A DNA stretch of 64,000 nucleotides from Gemmatimonadota bacterium (GTDB taxonomy: Bacteria; Gemmatimonadota; Gemmatimonadetes; Gemmatimonadales; GWC2-71-9): NCBI GenBank assembly GCA_039588295.1, contig JBDHAB010000007.1, forward strand, positions 1 to 64,000, read 5' to 3'. Below the pieces are notes generated by a model. The model had not been told where the DNA came from. It worked only from the letters and a program-made list of their open reading frames with translations, and searched no databases. Position 1 is the first letter of the stretch, and the number at the start of each line of letters is the position of its first letter. Shown here piece by piece: positions 1 through 18,481 of this stretch. Position numbers and translations under genes: made by a program.

Positions 1-205
1 GCTGGGCCTTGAGGACATCGGCGAGCCAATACCAGCTACCCGTGGATTCGACGACGGCGCGGTGGGGCCCCGAGAACTGTGCGAAGTAGCGTTGCAGCAG
101 GAGCGGGCTATTGGACACGCGTTGCTGTTTGACGACGTCCCCTTCGGGCCCGTACGTTGTGATGAACGAGTCGCGTTTGTGTTGATCAATGCCGGAGTAC
201 CACAT
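1..205 (-). CDS. IS110-family (DEDD) transposase/recombinase, N-terminal part; runs off the window
   Basis: Hand translation from ATG at 205: MWYSGIDQHKRDSFITTYGPEGDVVKQQRVSNSPLLLQRYFAQFSGPHRAVVESTGSWYWLADVLKAQ. GIDxHK and VVESTG-x-W match the first two acidic motifs of the IS110 RuvC-like domain. Not in the ORF track. Confidence 0.88.
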   Translation of the reverse strand, partial: MWYSGIDQHKRDSFITTYGPEGDVVKQQRVSNSPLLLQRYFAQFSGPHRAVVESTGSWYWLADVLKAQ

Positions 206-3664: not shown

Positions 3665-4405
3665 TTGAGTGGAAGCGTCCGTGGACCGACGCCGCGTGAG
3701 ATTGTCCAGGCCTCGCACTGCGGACATGCAGGTGCACGTACCGCACGGGCAAAAGCGTCCTCCCCAACCGCGGACTTTCTGCGGGGCGTGTGGCGGGAGA
3801 ACCCGGTATTCCGGCAGGTACTGGGACTGTGTCCGGCTCTGGCCGTCACCAACACCGTGGCGAACAGCCTTGCCATGGGCGTCGCCACGCTGTTCGTGCT
3901 CACCGGATCGAGTTTCCTGGTCTCGACGCTGCGACGTGCCATCCCCCATGAGGTACGGATTTCGAGCTACGTGCTGATCATCGCCACATTCGTCACCATC
4001 GCCGAGATGCTGATGGAGGCTGTGGTGCCCAAGGTGCACCATGCCCTCGGAGCCTTTGTCTACCTCATTGTCGTCAACTGTATGATCCTCAGTCGCCAGG
4101 AAGCCTTCGCCTTGAGGCAGCCGGTGGGGCGCGCAGTGCTCGATGCGCTGGGAACCGGTCTCGGCTTCCTGTTGGCGCTGCTCCTGATGGGCGGCATTCG
4201 AGAGGTCCTCGGTCAGGGCACGCTCTTGGGGGTGAGCCTCTTCGGTCCGTCCTATGAGCCTTGGGTGATGATGATCCTGCCGCCTGGCGGCTTCTTCACA
4301 ATCGGGTTCCTGCTGCTCGGTTTGGGATGGGTCGCGCAGCGACAGGCTGTCAGGAGGAAAGCGAAGGAACGGCTGATCTGGATGGCAGCGGGGAGCGCGG
4401 CGTAA
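3665..4405 (+). CDS. rnfE: Rnf/Rsx electron transport complex subunit E (start uncertain)
   Basis: ENPVFRQVLGLCPALAVT, LIVVNC, ILPPGGF motifs. Confidence 0.9.
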   Translation: MSGSVRGPTPREIVQASHCGHAGARTARAKASSPTADFLRGVWRENPVFRQVLGLCPALAVTNTVANSLAMGVATLFVLTGSSFLVSTLRRAIPHEVRISSYVLIIATFVTIAEMLMEAVVPKVHHALGAFVYLIVVNCMILSRQEAFALRQPVGRAVLDALGTGLGFLLALLLMGGIREVLGQGTLLGVSLFGPSYEPWVMMILPPGGFFTIGFLLLGLGWVAQRQAVRRKAKERLIWMAAGSAA

Positions 4406-4983
4406 TGGACGGGTTGGTGTGGATCTTCGTTTCCGCAATGGTGGTGAACAACTTCACGTTCTCCTACTTCCTCGGCCTGTGTCCCTTCATGGGGGTATCG
4501 GCGAGAGTCTCTACAGCAGTGCGGATGGGGGCCGCGGACACGTTCGTGCTGCTCGTGACCGCGGTGTGCGCCTGGGTGCTCAACACGTTGCTTCTCCCCT
4601 ACGCTCCATTCCTCCGGCTCATCTCCTTCATCGTCGTGATCGCGTCGGTGGTGCAGATCGTGGAGATGGTGATCAAGAAACTGAGCCCGCGCCTGTTTCG
4701 AGAATTGGGCGTGTTCCTCCCGCTCATCACCACGAACTGCGCGATCCTGTACCTCGCGATCTTTCAGACCAATCGCGGCTATGACTTTCTCGAGGGCATC
4801 TTCTTCGCCTTGGGAGCCGGAGCGGGCCTCACCCTCGCCTTGGTCCTCATGGCCGCCGTCCGAGAGCAGATCGAGTTCGCGAACGTCCCGCAGTTCGCGA
4901 AGGGCACGGCCGTTGTGTTCATCATCGCTGGGATTCTGTCGCTGGCGTTCATGGGATTCAGCGGACTGTTGAGCGCTGTATGA
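4405..4983 (+). CDS. rnfA: Rnf/Rsx electron transport complex subunit A
   Basis: VNNFTFSYFLGLCPFMGVS, LPLITTNC, AGILSLAFMGF. TAATG overlap with rnfE. Confidence 0.92.
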   Translation: MDGLVWIFVSAMVVNNFTFSYFLGLCPFMGVSARVSTAVRMGAADTFVLLVTAVCAWVLNTLLLPYAPFLRLISFIVVIASVVQIVEMVIKKLSPRLFRELGVFLPLITTNCAILYLAIFQTNRGYDFLEGIFFALGAGAGLTLALVLMAAVREQIEFANVPQFAKGTAVVFIIAGILSLAFMGFSGLLSAV

Positions 4984-6704: not shown

Positions 6705-7730
6705 ATGAACTCGAAACGCGGCCAGGCTCCGGGGGGGGTCTTGCGCTCGCTGGGCGAGCGCACGGCGTTGGATGCGCTGGACTACTCGGTGCCTGCCCGG
6801 GCTAACCGATTGGACTTCATGCTGGGCGGGTCGACGCTCGCGGCACTGGTGCTGCTGGGGCTCACAGGCATCGTGCTCACCCAGTTTTACAACCCATCGC
6901 CCGTGGGTGCGCACGAGTCGATTCGCTACGTCATCACGAGCGAACCGTTGGTGGCGCTGTTGCGCGACGTGCACGTGTGGGGGGCTACGGCTGCCCTCGT
7001 GTTAGTGTTCACCCACCTGGCAGCGGTGTTTTGGAGGCGTGGGTTTCGCCAGCCTCGCGAGGGGCTCTGGTGGAGCGGCGTTCTTCTGCTGGCGCTGCTG
7101 TTCGGACTCGCGTTCACGGGTTCGGTGCTGCGGGCTGACCAAGAGGCCGTCGAGGCTTTGGCACATGCGGTCGCTGGCGCTGACGCCGCCGGACCACTCG
7201 GGGCGCCGCTCAAGGCCGACTTCACACCGTCGAGCCCACTGCTCACGCGGATGTACGGGGCGCATGTGTCGGTGCTACCGCTTGCGCTGGTGACATTGCT
7301 CGCGTTGCATCTGTGGTTGATTCGCCACCTCGGTGTGAGTGCGACCGGTCACGTGCGTGTCGCGTTCCGCACGCACCTGCGTCTCTTGGGCGGAATCTCG
7401 CTGTTGGTGGTGGCCGCGGTGACGTTGGCTGCGATCGCCTCCCCTGGCTCACTTCTCGCACCGGGAGTGGAGGGCTTCGAGGTCACCAAGCCCCACTGGA
7501 CGTTCTTGTGGATCTACGCGGCCGAAAACCTGTTTGGGATGCGCGGCATGTTGGCCGCGCCCGCCGTGCTCTTTGGATTCATGGCCGTGGTCCCGTTGAC
7601 GGATCGGGAAGATGGAACGCTCGCCACGGCAACGCGTGCGTTGGGCGTGGTGCTCGGCGTCCTGATGATCGCAGCGATCGTCTACGCGGCGCTTGCCCCG
7701 GCCCAATCACACATCGGAGCGGGAATGTGA
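6705..7730 (+). CDS. Cytochrome b/b6-family membrane protein
   Basis: LTGIVLTQFY. Haem-ligand His pairs in RDVH...TH and AH...LH. PHWT at the PEWY position. Confidence 0.85.
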   Translation: MNSKRGQAPGGVLRSLGERTALDALDYSVPARANRLDFMLGGSTLAALVLLGLTGIVLTQFYNPSPVGAHESIRYVITSEPLVALLRDVHVWGATAALVLVFTHLAAVFWRRGFRQPREGLWWSGVLLLALLFGLAFTGSVLRADQEAVEALAHAVAGADAAGPLGAPLKADFTPSSPLLTRMYGAHVSVLPLALVTLLALHLWLIRHLGVSATGHVRVAFRTHLRLLGGISLLVVAAVTLAAIASPGSLLAPGVEGFEVTKPHWTFLWIYAAENLFGMRGMLAAPAVLFGFMAVVPLTDREDGTLATATRALGVVLGVLMIAAIVYAALAPAQSHIGAGM

Positions 7731-7761
7731 GTATGGCGAGACAAGAAAGGATGGGGGGAAT

Positions 7762-8301
7762 ATGACCCGTATGGCACTGTCGGTTGCCGGAATCGTCGTC
7801 GGCGTCCTCCTCAGCGCGACGTCAGCAGTGGCGCATGACAGAGGCGTACTGAGGCTTTCGACACGGGAGCTCGTGGTCGGCAACGCCGTCCGCGTGAATG
7901 GAGAGAAATTCTCACCGAGTGCGAACCTCGAGCTCGTCGTCGTTGGCACTCGCGGTCGGATCGCGGTGGGCAAGGTGACCACGGACTCCGCGGGTCGGTT
8001 CCAGACGGACCTGGACGTTCCCCAACACGTAGCGCCAGGTACCTATCGCCTGATCGCGGTCGCGGATGATGGAGATGAGGTCGCCACCGTTGACGTGACG
8101 GTGACGGTGTGGGAGTCCGATGCGATCCTCAGCGCGCCCGCGGACGGCCCGCCAACTCCCAGCGCCGAGCCGCCACAGCTCGAGCGGGCAGAGAGCCCCT
8201 GGGTGACCGGTGGCGCACTCGTGAGTGTTGTGGGCGCGCTGCTGCTCGGTCTGATCGCGTTGCGTCGACCGACGCGCCACGACCGCACCGTAGACGCTTA
8301 A
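7762..8301 (+). CDS. Exported Ig-like protein with C-terminal membrane anchor
   Basis: Signal peptide ending AVA-H (mature N-terminal His), beta-rich domain, Pro-rich linker, TM helix with basic tail. Confidence 0.7.
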   Translation: MTRMALSVAGIVVGVLLSATSAVAHDRGVLRLSTRELVVGNAVRVNGEKFSPSANLELVVVGTRGRIAVGKVTTDSAGRFQTDLDVPQHVAPGTYRLIAVADDGDEVATVDVTVTVWESDAILSAPADGPPTPSAEPPQLERAESPWVTGGALVSVVGALLLGLIALRRPTRHDRTVDA

Positions 8302-8319
8302 CAAGACCAAGGAGGACCA

Positions 8320-8787
8320 GTGCCGTTCAGATTCCTGTCAGCCGTGACGCTCTTCTTACCTGCGAGTTCGAATACTGCCGTGGCTCGAGCTCAGACCGAC
8401 GACGTGGAGACTGTTCGTGGGGTGGTCGAAGCGGTGGCGGCTTCGGCACAAGCCAAAGACCTGACCGGCCTGGACACCCTGTACGCCCCGGACCCTTGGG
8501 TCCGTATCATCGAGGGTGCTGGGGTGAACAACGGGTGGCGTGACTATCGAGATCACCACCTCGCGCCCGAATTGGCGGCGTTTGAGAACCTCCACTACCG
8601 GTTCTTCGACGTCGCGCCGCAGGTTCGAGGGATGGTTGCTTGGGCACCGTTTCGGTATGACCTGGCCGCTGACACTCCGACGGGACACGTCGAGGTCGAG
8701 GGTCGCGGCACGGCAGTGCTCGAGCGGCGGAATGGCCGCTGGCTTGTGGTCCACCTCCACACGTCCGGACGACGGAGTGGCCAGTGA
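8320..8787 (+). CDS. NTF2/SnoaL-like exported protein
   Basis: DLTGLDTLYA, YRDHHLAPEL, GTAVLERRNGRWLVVHLHTS. Confidence 0.8.
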   Translation: MPFRFLSAVTLFLPASSNTAVARAQTDDVETVRGVVEAVAASAQAKDLTGLDTLYAPDPWVRIIEGAGVNNGWRDYRDHHLAPELAAFENLHYRFFDVAPQVRGMVAWAPFRYDLAADTPTGHVEVEGRGTAVLERRNGRWLVVHLHTSGRRSGQ

Positions 8788-8887: not shown

Positions 8888-11356
8888 ATGAGCGTCCTGC
8901 ATCGGCACCACGAGCACGGTGATCACTCGCCACCGGTTGAGGACGCCAGTGTGACGACCGATCCGGTATGCGGCATGACAGTTCCTCCCGATACGGAGCT
9001 TTGCCATGAGCATGCGGGCACTACGTACCTGTTTTGCAGTGCGCACTGCCTCGAGCGGTTCCTGGCAGACCCCGCGTCGTTCGTCGGCGATCGGGTCGGA
9101 GCGCCAACACCACCGGCCACTCCCGGCACGGTGTACACCTGCCCGATGGATCCTGAGGTGCGAGAGGACGCTCCGGGGAGCTGCCCGAAATGCGGCATGG
9201 CGCTGGAGCGCGAGATGAGCACGGCCGGTCTCACTCGCACGGAATTCGTCTGCCCGCTGCATCCCGAGATTGTCCGAGAGGAGGCAGGGTCCTGCCCGAT
9301 CTGCGGGATGGCGCTCGAGCCCAGGACTGTCACGGCGGAGGACGAAGAGAATCCGGAGCTCGTGGACATGCGCCGGCGGTTTTGGGTGAGTGCGGCGCTC
9401 ACGCTTCCGGTGCTCGCCATCGCGATGGGCCACTACCTCCCTGGAGGAAATCCACTGCTCCGTGTTGCATCGCCGCAGGGGCTGTCGTGGTTGGAGTTGC
9501 TGCTCGCGTCGCCGATCGTGCTCTGGGGTGGATGGCCGTTCTTCGTACGCGGATGGCGATCGGTGGTCACCCGGAACCTGAACATGTTCACCTTGATCGG
9601 ACTCGGAGTCGGCGTCGCCTATGTGTACAGTCTCGTGGCGAAGTTCTTCCCCGAGATCTTCCCAGGGTCGTTCAGGAATGAAGAGGGCCAGGTCGGGGTC
9701 TACTTCGAGGCCGCTGCGGTGATCGTGACACTCGTGCTGCTCGGTCAGGTGCTCGAGCTCAAGGCGCGCAGTCGCACCAGCGCGGCGATCAAGGGTCTCC
9801 TCGGCTTGACGCCGAAGACGGCCAGGCGCATCGCGCAAAACGGAACGGAAGAGGATGTCCCGCTCGACGCGGTGCAGCCAGGCGACCACTTGCGCGTTCG
9901 TCCGGGTGAGAAGGTCCCGGTGGATGGGGTCGTGCTCGAGGGGGTGAGTTCCGTTGACGAGGCGATGATCACGGGTGAGCCGATTCCGGTGGAGAAGACG
10001 GCCGGCGATCGGCTTATCGGTGCCACCGTCAACGGGACAGGCTCGCTAGTGATGCGTGCCGAGAGGGTCGGAGCGGAGACGCTCTTGTCGCAGATTGTCC
10101 GCATGGTCGCGGAGGCCCAGCGGAGCCGCGCGCCCATCCAGAAGCTCGCCGATGTCGTCGCCTCGTATTTCGTCCCCGCGGTCGTCGTCATCGCAGTTGC
10201 TACCTTCGTGATCTGGGCAGTGTTTGGTCCGGAGCCCGCGATGGCGTATGCACTGATCAATGCAGTGGCAGTGCTGATCATTGCCTGCCCCTGCGCGTTG
10301 GGGCTGGCGACTCCAATGTCGATCATGGTTGCGAGCGGCAAGGGCGCCACTATGGGGGTGCTGTTCAAGAATGCCGAGGCCATCGAGATCCTGCGCAAGG
10401 TGGACACGCTGGTGGTCGACAAGACAGGCACGATCACCTTGGGAAAACCAAAGCTCGTCGAGATCGTACCTGCTCCTGGGTGGAGCGACGTGGAGGTCCT
10501 CGCCTTCGCTGCGAGCCTCGAGCGTGGTAGTGAGCATCCCCTCGCGGCTGCCATTGTCGAGGGAGCGGAGGACCGCAACGTGCCAACGGCGAAGGCCGAG
10601 TCGTTCGACTCAGTGACGGGAAAAGGAGTGGTGGGGACGGTGACCGGCCGAGCTGTCGCGCTCGGCAACAGCAAGCTCATGCAAGAAGTTGGTGTTGCCG
10701 TTGAGACCATGACGGCCGAGGCCGAGCGCCAACGAGCGGACGGGCAGACGGTGATGTTCGTGGCCGTGGATGGGGGACTCGTCGGCCTGGTGGGAGTCGC
10801 GGACCCGGTGAAGGAAACGACACCACAGGCGATCGAGCATCTACGGGCGGCAGGAGTTCGCATCACGATGCTTACCGGTGACAGTCGTACCACGGCCCAA
10901 GCCGTGGCGCGCAAGCTCGGGATCGACGAAGTGATTGCTGAGGTTTTGCCTGACCAGAAAGCCGATGTCATCAAGGGTTTGCAACAGCAGGGGCGCGTGG
11001 TGGCGATGGCCGGCGACGGGATCAACGATGCGCCGGCCCTCGCACAAGCAGAAGTTGGGATTGCCATGGGGACGGGCACAGACGTCGCGATGGAGAGTGC
11101 CGGTATCACGCTGGTCCGGGGGGATCTGCGGGGCATCGTGCGGGCGCGTCGCTTGAGCCGAGCGACGATGCGGAATATTCGGCAGAATCTGTTCTTCGCG
11201 TTCGTGTACAACAGCTTGGGTGTGCCTATCGCGGCGGGGATTCTCTACCCGTTCTTTGGAATCTTGTTGAGTCCCATCATCGCGGCGGCCGCCATGAGTT
11301 TTAGTTCGGTGTCCGTGGTTGGCAACGCGCTTCGCCTCCGGCGGGCGCGAGTCTAG
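8888..11356 (+). CDS. copA: Cu(I)/Ag(I)-translocating P1B-type ATPase with YHS and heavy-metal-binding domains
   Basis: DPVCGM/FCS (YHS), YTCPM...CPKCGM repeats, TGE, CPC, DKTGT, HP, GDGIND, YN and MxxSS motifs. Confidence 0.95.
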
Positions 11357-11375
11357 TCCGAAGCTGGGAGGTTCG

Positions 11376-11843
11376 ATGCGAATCAAGCCGTGGATGAAAC
11401 CCGTGATCGGTGCCGCAGCCATCGTTCTCGCGATCGCGGCAGGCTCGTGGCTCAAAGCGCGCGATGCCTTGGCCGCAGACGTGACGGTCTATACCACTCC
11501 CACTTGCGGCTGCTGCACCAAGTGGGCCGAATATGTCCGCGCGAACGGATTCTCGGTGAAGACGGTGTTCAGGGACAATCTGACGCCGATCAAGCGGAAG
11601 TACGACGTGAGCCCGATGCTCGAGACCTGTCACACGGCGATCGTGGACGGGTACGTCGTGGAGGGGCACGTGCCGATTGACGTGATCAGGAAACTGCTCG
11701 AGGAGCGGCCGGACGCCAAGGGCATTGCGGTGCCGGGGATGCCAGTCGGCTCACCTGGAATGGAGCAAGGCACCGTGCGCGATCGCTATAACGTCGTCCT
11801 ATTCGATGGAATGGGAGGTATGACTGTTTACGCACGTCGGTGA
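11376..11843 (+). CDS. DUF411 (CopG-like) periplasmic metal-binding protein
   Basis: CGCC..W, CHT, EGHVP, AVPGMPVGSPGME. Confidence 0.9.
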   Translation: MRIKPWMKPVIGAAAIVLAIAAGSWLKARDALAADVTVYTTPTCGCCTKWAEYVRANGFSVKTVFRDNLTPIKRKYDVSPMLETCHTAIVDGYVVEGHVPIDVIRKLLEERPDAKGIAVPGMPVGSPGMEQGTVRDRYNVVLFDGMGGMTVYARR

Positions 11844-11946: not shown

Positions 11947-12420
11947 TTATTGCACCACCCAATTCGACAAGACTCTCAGCGTGCGGTTCCCCCAAGCAGG
12001 ATCGTTCGTGGCCAGCTGGACGCGAAAGTCGTGCGGACCGTCCATGGCGGTCGTCATCATAAAGCGCATGGAGAGCGTGGTTTGCTGGCCAGGTTCCAAG
12101 ACCATCGACCCGATGGTCGGGATGGGCGGTCAGCACCCCGCGACCGCTTTCACCCAAGGAGCGTCGAGAAAGCGAAGTGCACCGTCTCCGGCATTCCTCA
12201 GGGTGAACGACGCCGTGACCCACTGCGCCACCGGGACGTCCCCTAGGTCAATCAAATCTCGGTCCACCTCGAGTTGCGGAGTGCCGCGCTCAGTGCTCGA
12301 AGTGTGGGTCTTCGTGCCTTCGGCGCAGGCGAGCACCGTCGCAGACATTGACGCGAGTGCGGCAGCCACCCACCACCGCCACCGCGTGCGGAACCGGAAT
12401 GACCAACCCGTATCCGTCAC
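11947..12420 (-). CDS. DUF1573-like Ig-fold lipoprotein, predicted selenoprotein (Cys-Sec)
   Basis: GTG start overlaps the upstream TGA. Lipobox VLAC, IDLGDV...FTLRNAGD..L, then AGC-TGA(12132-12130)-PPIPTIGSMVLEPGQQTTLSMRFMMTTAMDGPHDFRVQLATNDP...WVVQ-TAA. LEPGQ and TNDP complete the fold. Confidence 0.85.
12100..12118 (-). promoter_or_regulatory. Putative bacterial SECIS element
   Basis: mRNA GACCAUCG-GGU-CGAUGGUC, a perfect 8-bp stem starting exactly 11 nt after the UGA, with GU in the apical loop. Confidence 0.75.
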
Positions 12421-13451
12421 CGCGGTATACCCTCGATGTCGAAGTCGAACTGAAAGGTCCATAGGAAATCCACCAAGGCCCATGTCTCTTGGTCGGTGAA
12501 GATCGATCCCCAATATGGCATTCCTGTTCCCATGCCACCTCGCAGGATCTTGCCCTGCAGGAGGGCGGGGCGAGCCCCCAGCATGCGCCGAGGGTCCGTG
12601 AAGTCGGCCGGCTGCTCGAGATGGCTCCCAAACTCGAGTTCGGCTCGGTCGTAGCGTGTCGAGACGGTGCCGGATGCCAAGTGGCGAGCCATGACGCCGT
12701 CGCCAGCCCCCGACTCGCCGTGGCAGGCGGCGCAGTTGCGCGAGTAGAGCGCGCGTCCCGTTGCCAGCGCGTCACTCGTGGTGCCGCGTTGCCAGATGAC
12801 TGCGACGAGATCCCACAGATCGATCTCCGACAGGTGTCGGACCGCTGGGTCCTGCTCGAGTACCGTCAAGATGTCGAGCGGGCTCATTCGTCTGAGGGAA
12901 TCACCGTTCGAGTACCGGTCGGCGATCCCGACTCCGAGGGCTGCTCCTCGTGCAGCGGATGGCTTGCGGGCCAAACGGACCGTGGCGTCGGGCCGATTGT
13001 CGAGGTCGAGGCCGAGCTGCAGATACAGAGGCGGAGTTGGTGAAGGAGGAGTGAAGCCGGAATCGACTACGGTGATCGTGCCCCGCATCCGCCAGTGGTC
13101 CGGCCCGCACCAGCGCGTACAATAGAACGTGTAGGTGCCTGCCTCCTCAAAAACGAGGGTCACGTCGGTAACTTCGCCGGGCTTGACGTCTCGGGATGGT
13201 TCATCGAGACGTCCAACCGCAAAGCCGTGCACGACGTCGCGTGAGGTGAGACGGAGTTGCAGAGGCTCGCCAACACGGACGGCCACGTCGGCGGGCTCCC
13301 ATCCCCCTACCTCCGGCATGGACGCGTGGATCTCGGTTCGACTGCTGCTGCGAAACCAACGGGTGGCCACGAAGGTCAATGGAACCCCCAGGCCCAGTAC
13401 AACCACGGTGCCGCGCGCCGTCCACTCGGCGACTACCCGACGAGCAGCCAC
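12417..13451 (-). CDS. Membrane-anchored CuA-cupredoxin + c-type cytochrome fusion (start uncertain)
   Basis: N-terminal TM. DVVHGF...CTRWCGPDHWRM (H...CxxxCxxxHxxM). CAACHG with distal GMPYW. Confidence 0.85.
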   Translation of the reverse strand: MAARRVVAEWTARGTVVVLGLGVPLTFVATRWFRSSSRTEIHASMPEVGGWEPADVAVRVGEPLQLRLTSRDVVHGFAVGRLDEPSRDVKPGEVTDVTLVFEEAGTYTFYCTRWCGPDHWRMRGTITVVDSGFTPPSPTPPLYLQLGLDLDNRPDATVRLARKPSAARGAALGVGIADRYSNGDSLRRMSPLDILTVLEQDPAVRHLSEIDLWDLVAVIWQRGTTSDALATGRALYSRNCAACHGESGAGDGVMARHLASGTVSTRYDRAELEFGSHLEQPADFTDPRRMLGARPALLQGKILRGGMGTGMPYWGSIFTDQETWALVDFLWTFQFDFDIEGIPR

Positions 13452-14794
13452 AACAAGAGCCCCGTGACGACAAGGTGGAAAGCTGCTATGGGTGCGGTCC
13501 GTATGCCTGAGCGATAGGCACGATCTTCGGCGGCGAGGCGCCGGGTTGCGGCAGTCGCCCACCCGAGGCCCACCACCAGCACCCCCGCCTGGACGACGGG
13601 CGCCCAGGGCATGAAATACGGCGTCCAGCGAACGTCAACGGTCCCGAACAGGTCCCAGCCCCAGCCCATCGGGTCGGATAGGACCGGCCACAGGTAGGAA
13701 ATGTTCGCGAATGCGAAGGAGAGGCTGAACGCGATCCAGGCAGCGAGGCCCAGGGGTGTGAGGCCCGGCGCAAAGTGGTTCACTGTGTGCCGGATGGCGT
13801 GCCTCGAGCCCGATAGGACGTTGCCGGTCCAGACCGCAGCGACGAAGAGGCTGGGAATCAGCCCGAGGACCGCGAGCACGAATGCGAGCGCGTACCCCCA
13901 CCAGGCGGCCGAGCCGATGGAATAGGCAGCGCTCTTGAGCCAGCCCCAGGGGCCCAGAAAAACGGCTGAGTAGAGCAGGGCACTACCCAACATGATGAGC
14001 GCTTTGAAGGTCTCATCGAGCGTGCGCCTGCGGTGATCGAACAGGTCCACGCCCGGTGGTCGGACGCTGATGACGACGTTATCGAGCGGGCAAGTGCGAA
14101 GACATTCCATGCACAAGCCGCAATAGGTGTTCGTAGTCATGCTGGCCGGGAAGATGTTCCAAGGACACCCATAGCCCTCGGCGCTTCCCCGATAGCAGGA
14201 CTTCTCGGTGTGCGTGGTGCAGATCTCCGTGCTTCGGACCCGCAGCTCGACCGGCGAGATCTCAGAGTACAACCCGATGAAGCCGCCGACGGGACACACG
14301 TGGCGACAAAAGGCGCGCCGCTCGAAGACCAGACTCGTGCCGATCGCCAGCAACAGAATCGCTGCCAGCACAAGTGCTGTCACACGAGGTTGGGTGAGGA
14401 TCACAGCGCTGAAGAGCGCCATCAGCAGGAACGCACCGTTCTGCAGCCAGATGTTCCTGAGCGCCCGTGGCCAGCGTCGTTGGGGACGCTCCTGCCATCC
14501 GGGGCCCGGCCCCAGCACGGCACGGGTCTGGAGCCATTCGCCGGGCATGGGAATGGGGCAGATGCTGCACCAGCCCCGGCCAAGCAGCGGGACGGCCACG
14601 AGCATCAAGAGTGCCCACCAGGCGATCCACACGAAGATGATGCTGAAATTTCTGTTGCCGACGGGGGTCCCGAGTAGGCCCGAGAGAATCACGAACACGA
14701 ACCCGCCCAACGCCGCAGCGCGAGCCAATAGTTGCGGCCAACGACTCCGAAGCAGCCGCGTGACGAACCGTGAACGCGTGAGTTGCCAGCTCAC
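13433..14794 (-). CDS. Polytopic 4Fe-4S binding membrane protein (NapH/MauN/NosR-C-like)
   Basis: GRGWCSICP, FCRHVCPVG, GCPW, CGLCMECLRTCP, many TM helices. GTGA overlap with the upstream gene. Confidence 0.88.
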   Translation of the reverse strand: MSWQLTRSRFVTRLLRSRWPQLLARAAALGGFVFVILSGLLGTPVGNRNFSIIFVWIAWWALLMLVAVPLLGRGWCSICPIPMPGEWLQTRAVLGPGPGWQERPQRRWPRALRNIWLQNGAFLLMALFSAVILTQPRVTALVLAAILLLAIGTSLVFERRAFCRHVCPVGGFIGLYSEISPVELRVRSTEICTTHTEKSCYRGSAEGYGCPWNIFPASMTTNTYCGLCMECLRTCPLDNVVISVRPPGVDLFDHRRRTLDETFKALIMLGSALLYSAVFLGPWGWLKSAAYSIGSAAWWGYALAFVLAVLGLIPSLFVAAVWTGNVLSGSRHAIRHTVNHFAPGLTPLGLAAWIAFSLSFAFANISYLWPVLSDPMGWGWDLFGTVDVRWTPYFMPWAPVVQAGVLVVGLGWATAATRRLAAEDRAYRSGIRTAPIAAFHLVVTGLLLWLLVG

Positions 14795-15285
14795 CGTCGG
14801 CTCTCTGCGAAACCGACGGCGATCGCCAGCAGCGCCAGTGCGGACGCACGCCAGAGCAGCGTGTTTGAGCCGACATGCAGCCTGCCGATCATGAAGGGGT
14901 GGAGCGCTCCACAAGTGACCGAGCACCGAAACCGAAAGGTGCCGGCTCGGTCCGCGACGAACGTGAGCGTTTCGGTCTTGCCTGGCTCGGCTGTCACATC
15001 GATGCCGTACCCGTCGAGGTACAGGCCGTGCACCATGTCGGTGGCGATCAAATCGAGGGTTACACGGTCACCGCGATTGACTCTGATGACCGCCGGTGTG
15101 AAGGCAAAACTCGCCGCCTCGACGCTGACCTGCCGCTCGACGGGCTTCCGGAGCTGTGGGGGGACCGGTGCAGCGATGATGACGAGCGCAGCGAGGGCCC
15201 CAAGAACGTGTGTCCGATGCGTAGAAGCCGCACGGCGGAGCCACGTCGGCAGCGCTGCTGCCCGATCGTCACGCACCGGGGTCAT
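14791..15285 (-). CDS. Cupredoxin-domain protein with CuA motif and flanking hydrophobic helices
   Basis: FTPAVIRVNRGDRVTL, DMVHGL, FRCSVTCGALHPFM. Confidence 0.88.
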   Translation of the reverse strand: MTPVRDDRAAALPTWLRRAASTHRTHVLGALAALVIIAAPVPPQLRKPVERQVSVEAASFAFTPAVIRVNRGDRVTLDLIATDMVHGLYLDGYGIDVTAEPGKTETLTFVADRAGTFRFRCSVTCGALHPFMIGRLHVGSNTLLWRASALALLAIAVGFAESRR

Positions 15286-15294
15286 GCCACAGGC

Positions 15295-15761
15295 TCAGGG
15301 GGGCGCGACCGCCCCGGTCGGTGGGCCGTACCGCGAGTATCTGCTGTGGACGAACGACTGGATTTCGCTCAGTTGCGCTTGCTGCCGCATGAGCCGCATG
15401 ACGTCCTGTGCTATGTCGACGCAGATGGAACAACCCAGCGCGTGGCTGTCGAATTCGAGCGCCCCCTCTTCGGTGGGGGAGGCGAAGCAGCTCAAGTTTG
15501 AGGTGTGTCCCATCGTCCCGCACCCGCAGTAGCAAGGGATCTCCTGGAGGATCTCCGGGTTCGCCACGGCGAAGAGATACGCGTCGCGGACCGCAAGTGC
15601 CGCCGATTGAATCTCCACAGGTAGATGATCGGGGTCCGCCATCGCAATCGGCTCGTGCCGGTCCCCGTCGCCGCCAGCGCACGCCGTCACAAACGCGGCC
15701 AGGATCCGAAGAGGAGCGGAGCAGCTGACAATCGGTGATGACGTCGGTCCGCTATCCGCAT
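15295..15761 (-). CDS. PCYCGC-motif lipoprotein with an apparent 1-nt frameshift in the signal peptide
   Basis: IPCYCGC...HTSNLSCF...H..GCSIC. GGAGG-ATG at 15761 gives MRIADRRHHRLSAAPLLFG, joining ILAAFVTAC (lipobox) only if one base is added near 15706. Confidence 0.8.
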
Positions 15762-15976
15762 ATCGGCCTCCGAATGATGTTGAGACGTTGAGCACCCAAC
15801 GGTGACATGATGCACCCCGCACACAGGCTGCGCCGTCGGGGTGGTTCACGGGATCCACGTCACGGACGGTGCTGTTTCAGCGGCGGAAATGGGCGGGGGC
15901 CCGTCACTGGCTGGGGAGGAACCACCTGCCAAGTGTCTCGACCAGGACGAGGCCCACCACCCGCACTCCCGCTACC

Positions 15977-16603
15977 TCACTTTGAGCCGCCGTTGAATGT
16001 GTTGATGTACGCGAGGATGGCCTCGACTTCCTCGGAGGTCAGTCCAAAGTTGGGCATCATCGACGTTGAGCTATCGAACGTTGGATCGGCCATCTTGCGA
16101 CGCAAATAGGTCGGTCCCCTGCGTCCAACCACGCCGTTCAGTGAGGGGCCCACCTGTCCACCGGCGGATCCAACCACGTGACATCCGAGGCATGCCTTCT
16201 GATCGACTAAGTCCTTGCCGCGGGCTATCACCTCCGGATTGGTCGAGGCGGCGCCCTCAGGAACGGTCGATGGTACCCGCGCCTTCCGTTCTCCGGTCGG
16301 TAGCGGTACTGCTTGACCCGGATCGGTGTTCGTCGCCTGCAGAAAGGCAAGCACACTTCGGACTTGGCCACCGGTCATATTACCCCGAGTCCGCATGTGG
16401 TTCAGAATCGTGACCCAATCACGATCGGTGCGCTCCAGCGGTGATCGCGGATTGTGACAACGACCGCAGAGATCTCCGTAGGCGCGCGCACCGGCTGCGA
16501 CGGTCCCATCTTGGACTTGCGTCTGGGCAGAAGCCGGCACTGTGGCTGCCGTCGCGAAGGCGAGTGCGACAGCCCACAGCCATGCCTTGCTTGAGTTTGC
16601 CAT
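15977..16603 (-). CDS. Periplasmic dihaem c-type cytochrome
   Basis: Signal peptide (ASA-Q). CGRCH...HM and CLGCH...GPSL...MMP. Confidence 0.88.
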   Translation of the reverse strand: MANSSKAWLWAVALAFATAATVPASAQTQVQDGTVAAGARAYGDLCGRCHNPRSPLERTDRDWVTILNHMRTRGNMTGGQVRSVLAFLQATNTDPGQAVPLPTGERKARVPSTVPEGAASTNPEVIARGKDLVDQKACLGCHVVGSAGGQVGPSLNGVVGRRGPTYLRRKMADPTFDSSTSMMPNFGLTSEEVEAILAYINTFNGGSK

Positions 16604-16614
16604 CGTCTCCCCTC

Positions 16615-17718
16615 CTAGAATCCAAACGCGATGTGGATCACAGCGCGATCGTTGTCAATTTCGGTTCCCTGCTCGCGGTTGAGCTCGTAAGCGCCCATTA
16701 CTGCGATCGAAGGACTGAACCAATAGTCGAGGGCAACGGCGGCCTGCCACGCGCCCTCATCCTGGACCACGCCATCGAGCTCCGTGTCGAAGACCTGCGT
16801 CCACCGCACAATGGGCTCCCAGGCTCTCCACCGATACGCGAGCTGGGCGTAGTAGCCATGACGCTTCAGTACCTCGAATCCCGTGAGCGTTTCGACTTCC
16901 TGCCGAGTCTGGATGTACTCGCCGCGCAACTCGACGCTGGCGCGGCGCAACTCCGCCGCCACGTTCCAGCCAGTGAAGTCGAGCACGTTTTGCTCGTCAT
17001 AATCCCCGTTGAGGTATGAGATGTTCACTTCCGCCCAGGGGGGAAGTGCTATGTCGATCCGTCCCCCGAACAGCTTGTCCGTGTTGTTGTCACTCGACGA
17101 TGCCGGAATCTCCAATTCGGCAACGTCTCCCGGAGCACTGACCTCGCCAGCCGGTCCGTTGGTGGCGTAGCCTGTCACGCCGAGGTGCCACGGACCTGGC
17201 GTCACGGCACCACGCAGCATCACACCAACGTCCGACAGCACGGGAATGATCGGCTCCGCTCCGAATTCGGAGACGTGGTGGCCGTAGAGGGGTGGTGCCG
17301 TTGGGAACTTGTTGATCCAGGTGGGATGCAGGCGCTCCCCGAAGACCCCAAAAGGAAGCAGGAACTTCCCCCCCACAAGTGTCACGTTGTCGCTGAGCAG
17401 TACGTCGATCTGCGCATACTCAAGCCCTGTTTCGGTCACGCCTCCAGTCAACTCGAACTCGAATTCCGCCTCGAAGAGCACCTTGTCCTGGAACTGATAG
17501 AGGAATACGGGACTCACGCTGGCGGTGAACTCGTTTTGGTTCTCACCTTCCGGGCGAAACGCGTATCCCACCGTCCCGTAGCCAGAAAGCACGACGTTGT
17601 GCGTGGGAACGACGCGAGCGCCGAGAGCCTGTTGGGCGTGGGCGGATCGAGCGGTGAACAGCAGTGCCACCGCAGTCGCCCCCAGCAGCAGCCTTCCCTT
17701 AGATGAACTAGTGACCAT
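16615..17718 (-). CDS. Outer-membrane beta-barrel (porin-like) protein
   Basis: Signal peptide AHA-Q, alternating amphipathic strands, GKFLLPFG, C-terminal Phe. Confidence 0.8.
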   Translation of the reverse strand: MVTSSSKGRLLLGATAVALLFTARSAHAQQALGARVVPTHNVVLSGYGTVGYAFRPEGENQNEFTASVSPVFLYQFQDKVLFEAEFEFELTGGVTETGLEYAQIDVLLSDNVTLVGGKFLLPFGVFGERLHPTWINKFPTAPPLYGHHVSEFGAEPIIPVLSDVGVMLRGAVTPGPWHLGVTGYATNGPAGEVSAPGDVAELEIPASSSDNNTDKLFGGRIDIALPPWAEVNISYLNGDYDEQNVLDFTGWNVAAELRRASVELRGEYIQTRQEVETLTGFEVLKRHGYYAQLAYRWRAWEPIVRWTQVFDTELDGVVQDEGAWQAAVALDYWFSPSIAVMGAYELNREQGTEIDNDRAVIHIAFGF

Positions 17719-18481
17719 GTCCCGGTCCTCCGTGGTCGTCGCCGGTGTCGCCGGACTCCGTCATCACCGGGATATGGAATTCGCCTTCCTCGTGGTCGGC
17801 GCCAACCAGGATCTCGACGTGCAGCTCATAGACGCCGGCTGCGCCGAAGGCAAACTCGCCATCGTACTCTCCGATGTTCTCTTCCTGAACCGATAGCGCC
17901 GTTTCGCTGTCGTCAGGTGCATGGATGGCCATCTCGACGTCCAACCCGGTGACCAGATCCGCAGGCAGGCCGTCGGTCCCGACGTCGTACACGAGCACGC
18001 TCACATGGGCGGTTGTGTTCTCCAGGATGGGGGCAGACGCAATCTCGAGCTCGACCCAGTACGGCCCGACCAGGCGGTGCTGGTTATGAACCTCGATGTC
18101 GTGTTGACCGATTTCCGCCATGATGGCGTGTCCTTTGGGTATGCCGAGGAAGTGAAGGTGGTACTCGCCTTCTTCAAAGAACCGCACGTGGGCGGCGTAG
18201 CCGTGCTCGTCGGGCTCCATGTCGACGACCTCGGGATCACTGCCGCTTGCATGCTGGATCTGGAGTTGGCTGCGGTGCATCTCTATGGGGGCGCCGTTAT
18301 CCGAGATGTGAACGGCGATCTCCACGTCTTCGAAGGTCTCGACTCGCGCCACCGAGATCTCAAACTCCACGTCCGGATTGAGGTCGGACAGCGCCGTTGG
18401 ATTATCCCAGGTGGCGCACGCCCCTAGCCCGGCGGCCAAAACCAGGACCGCTACGCTCGATCCTCGTGGGCTCATGGTCAC
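17708..18481 (-). CDS. His/acidic-rich lipoprotein with two YtkA/FixH-like Ig repeats
   Basis: Lipobox LGAC. Repeated GxY...F...GxYxLH (GYAAHVRFFEEGEYHLH; GEYDGEFAFGAAGVYELH). C-terminal DDHGGPGHGH. Confidence 0.7.
   Translation of the reverse strand: MTMSPRGSSVAVLVLAAGLGACATWDNPTALSDLNPDVEFEISVARVETFEDVEIAVHISDNGAPIEMHRSQLQIQHASGSDPEVVDMEPDEHGYAAHVRFFEEGEYHLHFLGIPKGHAIMAEIGQHDIEVHNQHRLVGPYWVELEIASAPILENTTAHVSVLVYDVGTDGLPADLVTGLDVEMAIHAPDDSETALSVQEENIGEYDGEFAFGAAGVYELHVEILVGADHEEGEFHIPVMTESGDTGDDHGGPGHGH

Follow-up and report, generated by a model that had tools for sequence, protein, structure and literature searches.

A Cys-Sec gene cut short at an in-frame UGA in a Gemmatimonadota bacterium and its tentative link to copper handling

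Introduction

The locus raises the question of whether an in-frame TGA on the minus strand of a Gemmatimonadota contig ends a short gene or is decoded as selenocysteine (Sec) within a longer one and, if the latter, what the longer protein might do. The window, which is the whole stretch of DNA analyzed here, comprises 64,000 nucleotides. An initial annotation had proposed that standard gene callers would truncate this gene and that its full product would be a 157-aa exported lipoprotein with a vicinal Cys-Sec pair, a DUF1573-like Ig fold and a Met/His patch, possibly acting as a copper chaperone or a thiol/selenol reductant. The Cys-Sec gene is carried by the minus strand at 12420-11947, a strand that the initial annotation had left unstated. 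A plus-strand reading of the same interval was rejected owing to a TAG stop in that frame. The features of the gene and its downstream flank are as follows.

11947..12420, minus strand: gene for a predicted G-C-U-P-P Ig-fold selenoprotein precursor of 157 aa (translation with TGA as U, homolog copies, model pLDDT 88)
12130..12135, minus strand: codons of the vicinal pair Cys96 (TGC) and Sec97 (TGA), the TGA itself being 12132-12130
12100..12118, minus strand: predicted bacterial SECIS hairpin, +12 to +30 after the UGA, read either as 8 bp with a GGU loop or as 7 bp with a GGGUC loop
11875..11907, strand unassigned: probable terminator, a hairpin of 13 pairs separating the convergent DUF411 gene from the selenoprotein gene (a pattern match only)

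The GTG start codon overlaps the stop of the upstream gene as GTGA, and the selenoprotein gene ends in TAA. As the initial annotation had noted, the frame stays open past the TGA for 60 further codons, and translation with TGA as U gives KAVAGC-U97-PPIPTIGSMVLEPGQQ around Sec97. The anticipated truncation is found in public records, as both the NCBI and the JGI entries for this protein stop at Cys96, at 96 aa (P0002). The length of 157 aa holds for the precursor; the mature chain would be about 126 aa if the lipobox were cleaved at Cys32. A search of the locus for a sigma-70 promoter pattern gave no match.

Results

The UGA codon across homologs

Homologs were collected as 165 gene copies in 164 loci, comprising the window gene, three copies from the same genus, and scan loci, namely the 80 top-ranked of 103 from genomes and the 80 top-ranked of 166 from metagenomes. 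The genome scan with a single protein query returned no matches, whereas an alignment-based scan succeeded; one locus (L023, E 8e-4, no tblastn alignment) was removed ahead of all counts. At the position of the Sec codon, TGA is present in 117 of the 165 DNA copies, across several phyla, and Cys in 48, while Trp or any other residue occurs in none, and a Cys codon precedes this position in every copy. Given that one of the two scan seeds matched only Cys forms, the share of TGA copies is not inflated. Among 54 short protein matches in the representatives search, 48 read G-C-C and four end at G-C; the remaining two are fragments, one with G-C-W and one with G-C-R (P0146, P0130). Contigs from three DNA sequencing runs failed to span the TGA and thus favor neither reading.

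The expectation that conservation would continue beyond the TGA was borne out by a signature of coding selection: compared with six relatives, most differences downstream of the TGA fall at third codon positions (22-33 of 58), with 5-11 at second positions. The genome of the window (96.3% complete) also encodes the full Sec machinery that the initial annotation had suggested looking for, with selA, selB, selC (tRNA-Sec) and selD all scoring over their cut-offs, and its own selD and fdhA each contain one in-frame TGA. Separately, another contig of this genome carries a tRNA array of 19 genes in about 16 kb (G000:C14:47647-63751), with several genes duplicated and one His gene with an ATG anticodon, which perhaps derives from a mobile element. 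Across the family, 51 of 54 genomes carrying a TGA copy yielded a selA match (in one case a fragment under the cut-off) versus 13 of 24 genomes with a Cys copy, a difference whose Fisher value of 6e-5 is overstated, as these MAGs are incomplete and related. Since neighboring genes terminate at ordinary TGA stops, UGA is not generally read as Trp here.

A reading of the TGA as a genuine stop, a nonsense mutation of recent origin or a Trp codon could draw on the G-C-W and G-C-R fragments and on the three TGA-copy genomes with no selA match. The wide occurrence of TGA in the family, the selection past it, the covariation of the SECIS described below, the complete Sec machinery and the ordinary use of UGA as a stop make this reading highly improbable. 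The UGA is almost certainly decoded as Sec, which is as well supported as sequence permits. None of the contrary outcomes named in the initial annotation (a non-Cys residue at this codon in homologs, loss of conservation after the TGA, or missing Sec machinery) occurred, and its overall interpretation stands with the qualifications given below.

The SECIS hairpin

The hairpin originally described was confirmed at 12118-12100, with eight perfectly paired bp, a GGU loop and an 11-nt spacer after the UGA. Its folding energy is within chance relative to dinucleotide shuffles in four windows (z = -0.01 to -1.35). The consensus quoted in the available text of PMC13188914 comprises a loop of 3-9 nt, a stem of 4-16 bp, a G in the first two loop positions, a distance of 16-37 nt from the UGA and an MFE of at most -7.5 kcal/mol. 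By computation, the hairpin falls inside these bounds, with a loop of 3 or 5 nt opening with G, 7-8 bp, a spacing of 18-19 nt and -14.2 to -15.5 kcal/mol.

Seven Watson-Crick pairs at +12..18/+24..30 follow 17 of the genome's 115,573 TGA triplets, and of these only that of the selenoprotein gene adds GG at +19/+20, while 15 pass when G-U pairs are allowed, the genome's own fdhA included; these criteria were chosen post hoc, from the hairpins of the selenoprotein gene and fdhA. The SECIS registers of these two genes are the same. The hairpin of selD (G000:C1:343859-344788, minus strand) departs from this common register.

Covariation was assessed in 99 distinct TGA sequences and 39 distinct Cys sequences, counted, as are the codons below, as copies of related sequences rather than as independent events. 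All six core pairs are formed in 93 of the 99 TGA sequences versus three of the 39 Cys sequences. Two pairs are compensatory, namely +16:+26 (A-U in 82, G-C in 17) and +14:+28 (C-G in 77, U-A in 20). The I-G-S peptide of the TGA genes is written in frozen synonymous codons, with ATC in 76/76, GGT in 75/76 and TCG in 76/76, the single GGT exception being the window gene, which uses GGG; the corresponding values in Cys genes are 7/8, 4/8 and 4/8. Searching the DNA for another instance of the SECIS consensus pattern gave five matches versus three in the control. The two-state, compensated stem of the SECIS offers a clean model of how recoding constrains a coding sequence.

Distribution and switching between Sec and Cys

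The named loci from the genome scan are mostly from Chloroflexota, and carriers of TGA copies include MAGs named Litorilinea aerophila (L090) and Anaerolinea thermophila (L065). In the phylum of the window the family is rare (4 of 301 genomes), and it occurs in two of eight same-genus genomes, a sparse spread that fits a mobile metal island. Loci in genomes of the same order reach 85-90% identity to loci of Gemmatimonas MAGs, so the window probably derives from Gemmatimonadales. On a quick tree built after masking the Sec codon and the SECIS codons, at least 11 changes of the U/C label are required, two of them forced by well-supported branches. One Cys (TGT) gene (L056:7168) is nested in a Sec-rich clade and retains the exact TGA-type SECIS sequence; because the hairpin has been kept inside such a clade, this gene is probably a recent reversion from Sec to Cys. 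Elsewhere, two tandem paralogs (L041:6419 and L041:7015), one Cys-Cys and one Cys-TGA, are sister rows on the same tree.

Fold, conserved residues and membrane anchor

Three features describe the predicted protein.

11950..12285, minus strand: PapD/ASH-type Ig-like domain, residues 46-157 (PF22544 over cut-off; structural match 2qsv)
12031..12057, minus strand: Met122-x3-Met126-x3-His130, candidate Cu(I) ligands (putative metal binding)
12325..12420, minus strand: candidate signal peptide (Arg-rich n-region and hydrophobic stretch) with a lipobox-like V-L-A-Cys32, as read from the sequence

The DUF1573-like Ig fold was a fair description. The protein scores 34.5 bits against PF22544 (HYDIN/VesB-like Ig; cut-off 25.5) and 23.4 bits against DUF1573 itself (PF07610), under the cut-off of 26.1; PF07610 matches 44 of 49 family members at E<=0.01. 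The predicted structure (pLDDT 88) is an Ig sandwich of PapD/ASH type behind an N-terminal helix. Its best structural match is 2qsv, an uncharacterized Porphyromonas protein (Z 14.0, rmsd 2.7, 107 residues), followed by VesC and Hydin domains. The fold resembles domains of Hydin/VesB/DUF1573 type, and no copper chaperone is among the 50 structural matches listed.

All 144 distinct domains have Cys96, Cys/Sec97, Met122, Met126 and His130, and 143 have Trp154. In the proposed Met/His patch these two Met and one His are therefore invariant, but two His common in the family, His123 (121/144) and His135 (123/144), are replaced by Thr and Gln in the window protein. Judging by the strand order of the model, a single pole would hold the Cys-Sec loop, the Met/His loop and Trp154.

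The putative lipoprotein anchor is mostly limited to this genus. Cys32, with Leu at -2, is retained in the three same-genus copies, but a lipobox-like Cys is detected by regular expression in only 7 of 161 copies, four of them in this genus, and most relatives seem, by eye, to carry a membrane helix at the N-terminus instead. When longer, fused forms were sought, 24 proteins were retrieved, none with G-C-x-P-P, which is weak evidence. One protein (P0050) has a cytochrome c tail joined to a domain of the selenoprotein family.

Gene neighborhood

The genes surrounding the selenoprotein gene are as follows.

12417..13562, minus strand: CuA-type cupredoxin fused to a c-type cytochrome (COX2, Cytochrom_C; His..CxxxCxxxHxxM and CxxCH conserved); the ORF limits are mechanical and the real start may be downstream
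13433..14926, minus strand: membrane polyferredoxin with Fer4_5 (CxxxCP-type) motifs, NapH/NosR/CcoG-like (domain and motif matches)
14791..15285, minus strand: small stand-alone CuA-type cupredoxin (COX2, Cupredoxin_1; CuA ligand set conserved)
15295..15858, minus strand: PCYCGC protein (PF13798), an OS_HP4/CYCXC relative, all-Cys here, and the tightest gene neighbor
15977..18481, minus strand: YtkA-like, porin-like and two-heme cytochrome c genes, co-oriented upstream (domain matches)
8888..11843, plus strand: CopA-like P1B-type ATPase (CPC motif, HMBD and YHS domains) and DUF411 protein, convergent (ORFs, domain matches)

Among 46 genome loci flanked on each side by no less than 4 kb, a PCYCGC gene is present at 40, a CuA protein gene at 36, the polyferredoxin at 28 and a P-type ATPase at 14. 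All four cluster genes occur together in 28 loci and none in five; a CuA gene is absent from 10, and the polyferredoxin is absent from 12 of the 40 PCYCGC-bearing loci. The CuA ligands are intact in both cupredoxins (at least 74 of 75-76 and at least 84 of 86 aligned matches), although the two CuA proteins cross-match. Neither a Sco nor a PCuAC family was found in 19 proteins scanned (17 recurring neighbor families and two window genes), and the scanned neighbors of 12417-15858 include no catalytic domain of oxidase subunit I or N2O reductase. A multicopper oxidase, DUF2085 and a two-component system recur near family loci, and a YtkA-like gene lies upstream in the window and in the genomes G002 and G008. 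Within 9-17 kb of DNA each, the three copies from the same genus lack CuA and PCYCGC genes; they adjoin an ATPase, SnoaL, DUF411 or the YtkA/porin/cytochrome cassette, which in G008 precedes the selenoprotein gene as it does here.

Several further arrangements were observed. G008 has a single run ending in the selenoprotein gene (L212:6981-11550), made up of YtkA-like, porin-like, two-heme cytochrome c, cytochrome b, Ig-like exported protein and SnoaL genes; in the window, these genes are split into two opposed blocks at 15977-18481 (minus strand) and 6705-8787 (plus strand). Two Rnf/Nqr membrane subunits lie directly ahead of the copper island (window 3665-4983, plus strand). A DUF411 homolog in G002 (L021) has an in-frame stop that is not at a Cys and is probably a broken gene. 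At one locus (L032), where the Cys-Sec gene itself has TGA, the PCYCGC neighbor is of the UxxC type with TGA, the only such case among 77 PCYCGC copies. This neighbor lies about 280-720 bases past the family TGA, and its own TGA is at the first Cys of CxxC, with a hairpin behind it, so that two selenoprotein genes adjoin.

Discussion

Proposed function and competing explanations

The suggestion of a copper chaperone or thiol/selenol reductant is backed by gene context only, and the following sequence of steps is proposed on that footing. With very high confidence, on comparative genomics, the UGA is decoded as Sec by means of the in-frame SECIS, and the product is an Ig-fold protein that is exported, tethered to the membrane and equipped with a vicinal Cys96-Sec97 pair. 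As read from the strand order of the model, the Cys-Sec loop, Met122, Met126, His130 and Trp154 would group at a pole away from the anchor and form a soft-metal site. Judging by gene context, the bound metal would probably be copper. Together with the PCYCGC protein, the selenoprotein may act outside the cytoplasm both as a Cu(I) chaperone and as a thiol/selenol redox factor. It would accept Cu(I) from the exporting ATPase, load the two co-encoded CuA centers and keep them reduced. This role would be one filled elsewhere by Sco and PCuAC/CtaK, and one in which Cys can replace Sec.

We tentatively favor this reading, an exported Cu(I) chaperone or redox factor that loads CuA sites with the PCYCGC protein, at a probability of roughly 0.4, by analogy of ligand types and from the neighbors. 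It is consistent with the restriction of the codon to TGA or Cys, the keeping of the SECIS only in TGA genes and the skew of selA toward TGA genomes, as well as with the invariant Cys, Met and His residues; two Met, one His and a Trp are the Cu(I) ligand types of CusF (PMC7558416, available in part). The frequency of PCYCGC, CuA, polyferredoxin and ATPase genes, the intact CuA ligands, the lack of Sco or PCuAC among the proteins scanned and the upstream YtkA-like genes (PMC9145763, available in part) point the same way. Against it are the same-genus copies that stand apart from CuA and PCYCGC genes, the well-flanked loci with no CuA gene or with no cluster at all, the two His lost from the window protein, and a fold that resembles Hydin/VesB/DUF1573-type domains, with no copper chaperone among the structural matches listed.

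A different view casts the selenoprotein as a broad scavenger or carrier of Cu(I), Ag(I) or Hg(II) in the envelope, detoxifying with the ATPase and the PCYCGC protein, and the CuA genes as frequent co-passengers rather than its clients. The same-genus copies beside an ATPase or a YtkA cassette lean toward it, as do the PCYCGC-bearing loci that lack the polyferredoxin, the recurring multicopper oxidase, DUF2085 and two-component genes, and the Cys-Sec motifs of SaoL and HgcA, which are tied to organometal chemistry (PMC13188914 and bioRxiv 10.1101/2022.07.06.499078, both available in part). However, CuA genes stand at 36 of the 46 loci and the ATPase at just 14, and we consider a scavenger rather unlikely.

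The co-occurrence of all four neighbors in 28 of the 46 loci admits yet another explanation, in which a membrane conduit passes electrons from quinol via Fe-S and CuA to cytochrome c and the protein forms its outer end, with a redox or catalytic role. One example would be a cupric reductase of CcoG type in split form, with the selenoprotein standing for the periplasmic Ig domain of CcoG. CcoG is a two-cluster Fe-S membrane cupric reductase whose C-terminal Ig domain is absent from YccM-like homologues (PMC7558416, available in part). Nevertheless, the polyferredoxin is the least constant member of the cluster, its NCBIfam matches are weak ones to NapH/NosR with none to CcoG, and the FixG C-terminal Ig is not among the Pfam matches of 49 family members; we rate a conduit as unlikely.

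Should the favored role as a CuA-loading chaperone hold, selenium may serve copper handling outside the cell membrane. The family is not rare, with 99 distinct TGA sequences among the loci taken, and it is cut in two in public records. Through CuA proteins and copper export, the cluster provides a lead to the function of two orphan families, the DUF1573-fold and PCYCGC selenoproteins. Moreover, the natural Cys-Cys and Cys-Sec pairs permit a direct test of what selenium contributes at an extracytoplasmic copper site.

Comparison with known selenoproteins and copper factors

A DUF1573 selenoprotein with the motif UGC and the OS_HP4/CYCXC selenoprotein have already been catalogued (PMC9312934 and PMC13188914, both available in part), and OS_HP2 was described from Olavius symbionts (PMC1976440, available in part). 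From the tables and the members of NF041425, we infer that OS_HP2 (NF041425) is the DUF1573 row (PF07610) of these reviews. The claim of a DUF1573-fold selenoprotein stands for the fold, while the UGC-motif proteins already known have a different motif. The comparison set comprised the 25 best NF041425 loci from 201 genomes, with UGC in 19, CGC in five and CAC in one. In the phylum sampled around G085, UGC-type OS_HP2 is common, with matches in 76 of 201 genomes (L185-L209), and many of its TGA-bearing matches fall under the NCBIfam cut-off.

OS_HP2 and the Cys-Sec family share a PapD/ASH-type Ig domain, Sec in the same loop, a SECIS directly downstream and Cys homologs. This likeness, with an hhalign value of 98% between the families and weak NF041425 matches to 41 of 49 members, could make the protein a divergent OS_HP2/DUF1573 (UGC) member with the thiol-redox job of that family, unrelated to copper. 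We regard this as quite improbable. Profile scores are 14-46 bits between the families versus 104-186 within them; the window protein reaches 12.8 bits against NF041425 (cut-off 100), outside curated membership, and a search of the window's genome with this model gave no match. The motifs are U-G-C and G-C-U-P-P, respectively, and Sec is shifted by one: Cys96 aligns with the Sec of OS_HP2, Sec97 with its Gly, and the family Pro with its second Cys. The two families further differ by a five-residue insert before the loop, by their SECIS sequences and in size, the open frames of OS_HP2 being mostly of 220-450 aa and the Cys-Sec proteins single-domain, with 150-185 aa. Unlike OS_HP2, the Cys-Sec family has the invariant M-x3-M-x3-H, a copper-cluster context and a mostly Chloroflexota distribution.

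OS_HP4/CYCXC (PCYCGC, PF13798, NF041379; UxxC) is encoded in the same cluster as the Cys-Sec protein but is unrelated to it in fold and motif, and is a neighbor. The window PCYCGC protein, all-Cys, scores 68.5 bits against an NCBIfam cut-off of 90; a PCYCGC lipoprotein is termed of unknown function in PMC13068155 (available in part). Other CU selenoproteins, namely SaoL, SaoC, HgcA, MbdU, KCU-star and the CopZ-family 2Fe-2S form 2 (PMC13188914, as far as its text was available), resemble ours in being vicinal Cys-Sec proteins, truncated by gene callers and metal-linked; they have different folds, and the Cys-Sec family has no NCBIfam match to any of them. The G-C-U-P-P family is absent from the table of 119 in the accessible part of PMC13188914 and from NCBIfam release 20, though other surveys may include it; nor was it found in the accessible parts of PMC1976440, PMC13326102, bioRxiv 10.1101/2022.07.06.499078 and PMC12013277. 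PMC13188914, in the part available, assigns selenoproteins that share one domain but differ in motif or in the position of Sec to separate subfamilies, and it is by this rule that the G-C-U-P-P family counts as absent from that table.

Like Sco, PCuAC and CtaK/YtkA, the Cys-Sec protein is membrane-tethered or periplasmic, has candidate Cys or Met/His ligands and is encoded near CuA proteins; CuA synthesis proteins as listed in PMC9145763 (available in part) include YtkA/CtaK. It differs from them in having no thioredoxin fold or CxxxC and no H(M)x10Mx21HxM (same source). The family has no sequence match to theirs in Pfam or NCBIfam, and solved PCuAC/Sco chaperones are not among the structural matches listed. 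The Cu(I) ligand types of CusF are two Met, one His and a Trp (PMC7558416, in the part available), and these residue types are invariant in the Cys-Sec family, where they would be grouped in space; CusF itself is an OB-like barrel without Cys-Sec, unlike the Ig-fold protein described here.

The mis-annotated selenoprotein is real, and the Cys-Sec family, found in a conserved copper cluster, is apparently an uncatalogued one on a known selenoprotein fold, separate from OS_HP2. A broader scenario, which we hold to be possible but doubtful, is that Sec was gained independently of OS_HP2, one codon over in the same loop and fold, giving an uncatalogued chaperone that relies on selenium to deliver copper for CuA assembly. 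Together with the PCYCGC (seleno)protein, it would provide Sco/PCuAC-independent copper loading of a Chloroflexota module for electron transfer through stand-alone CuA, which other phyla would have picked up sporadically.
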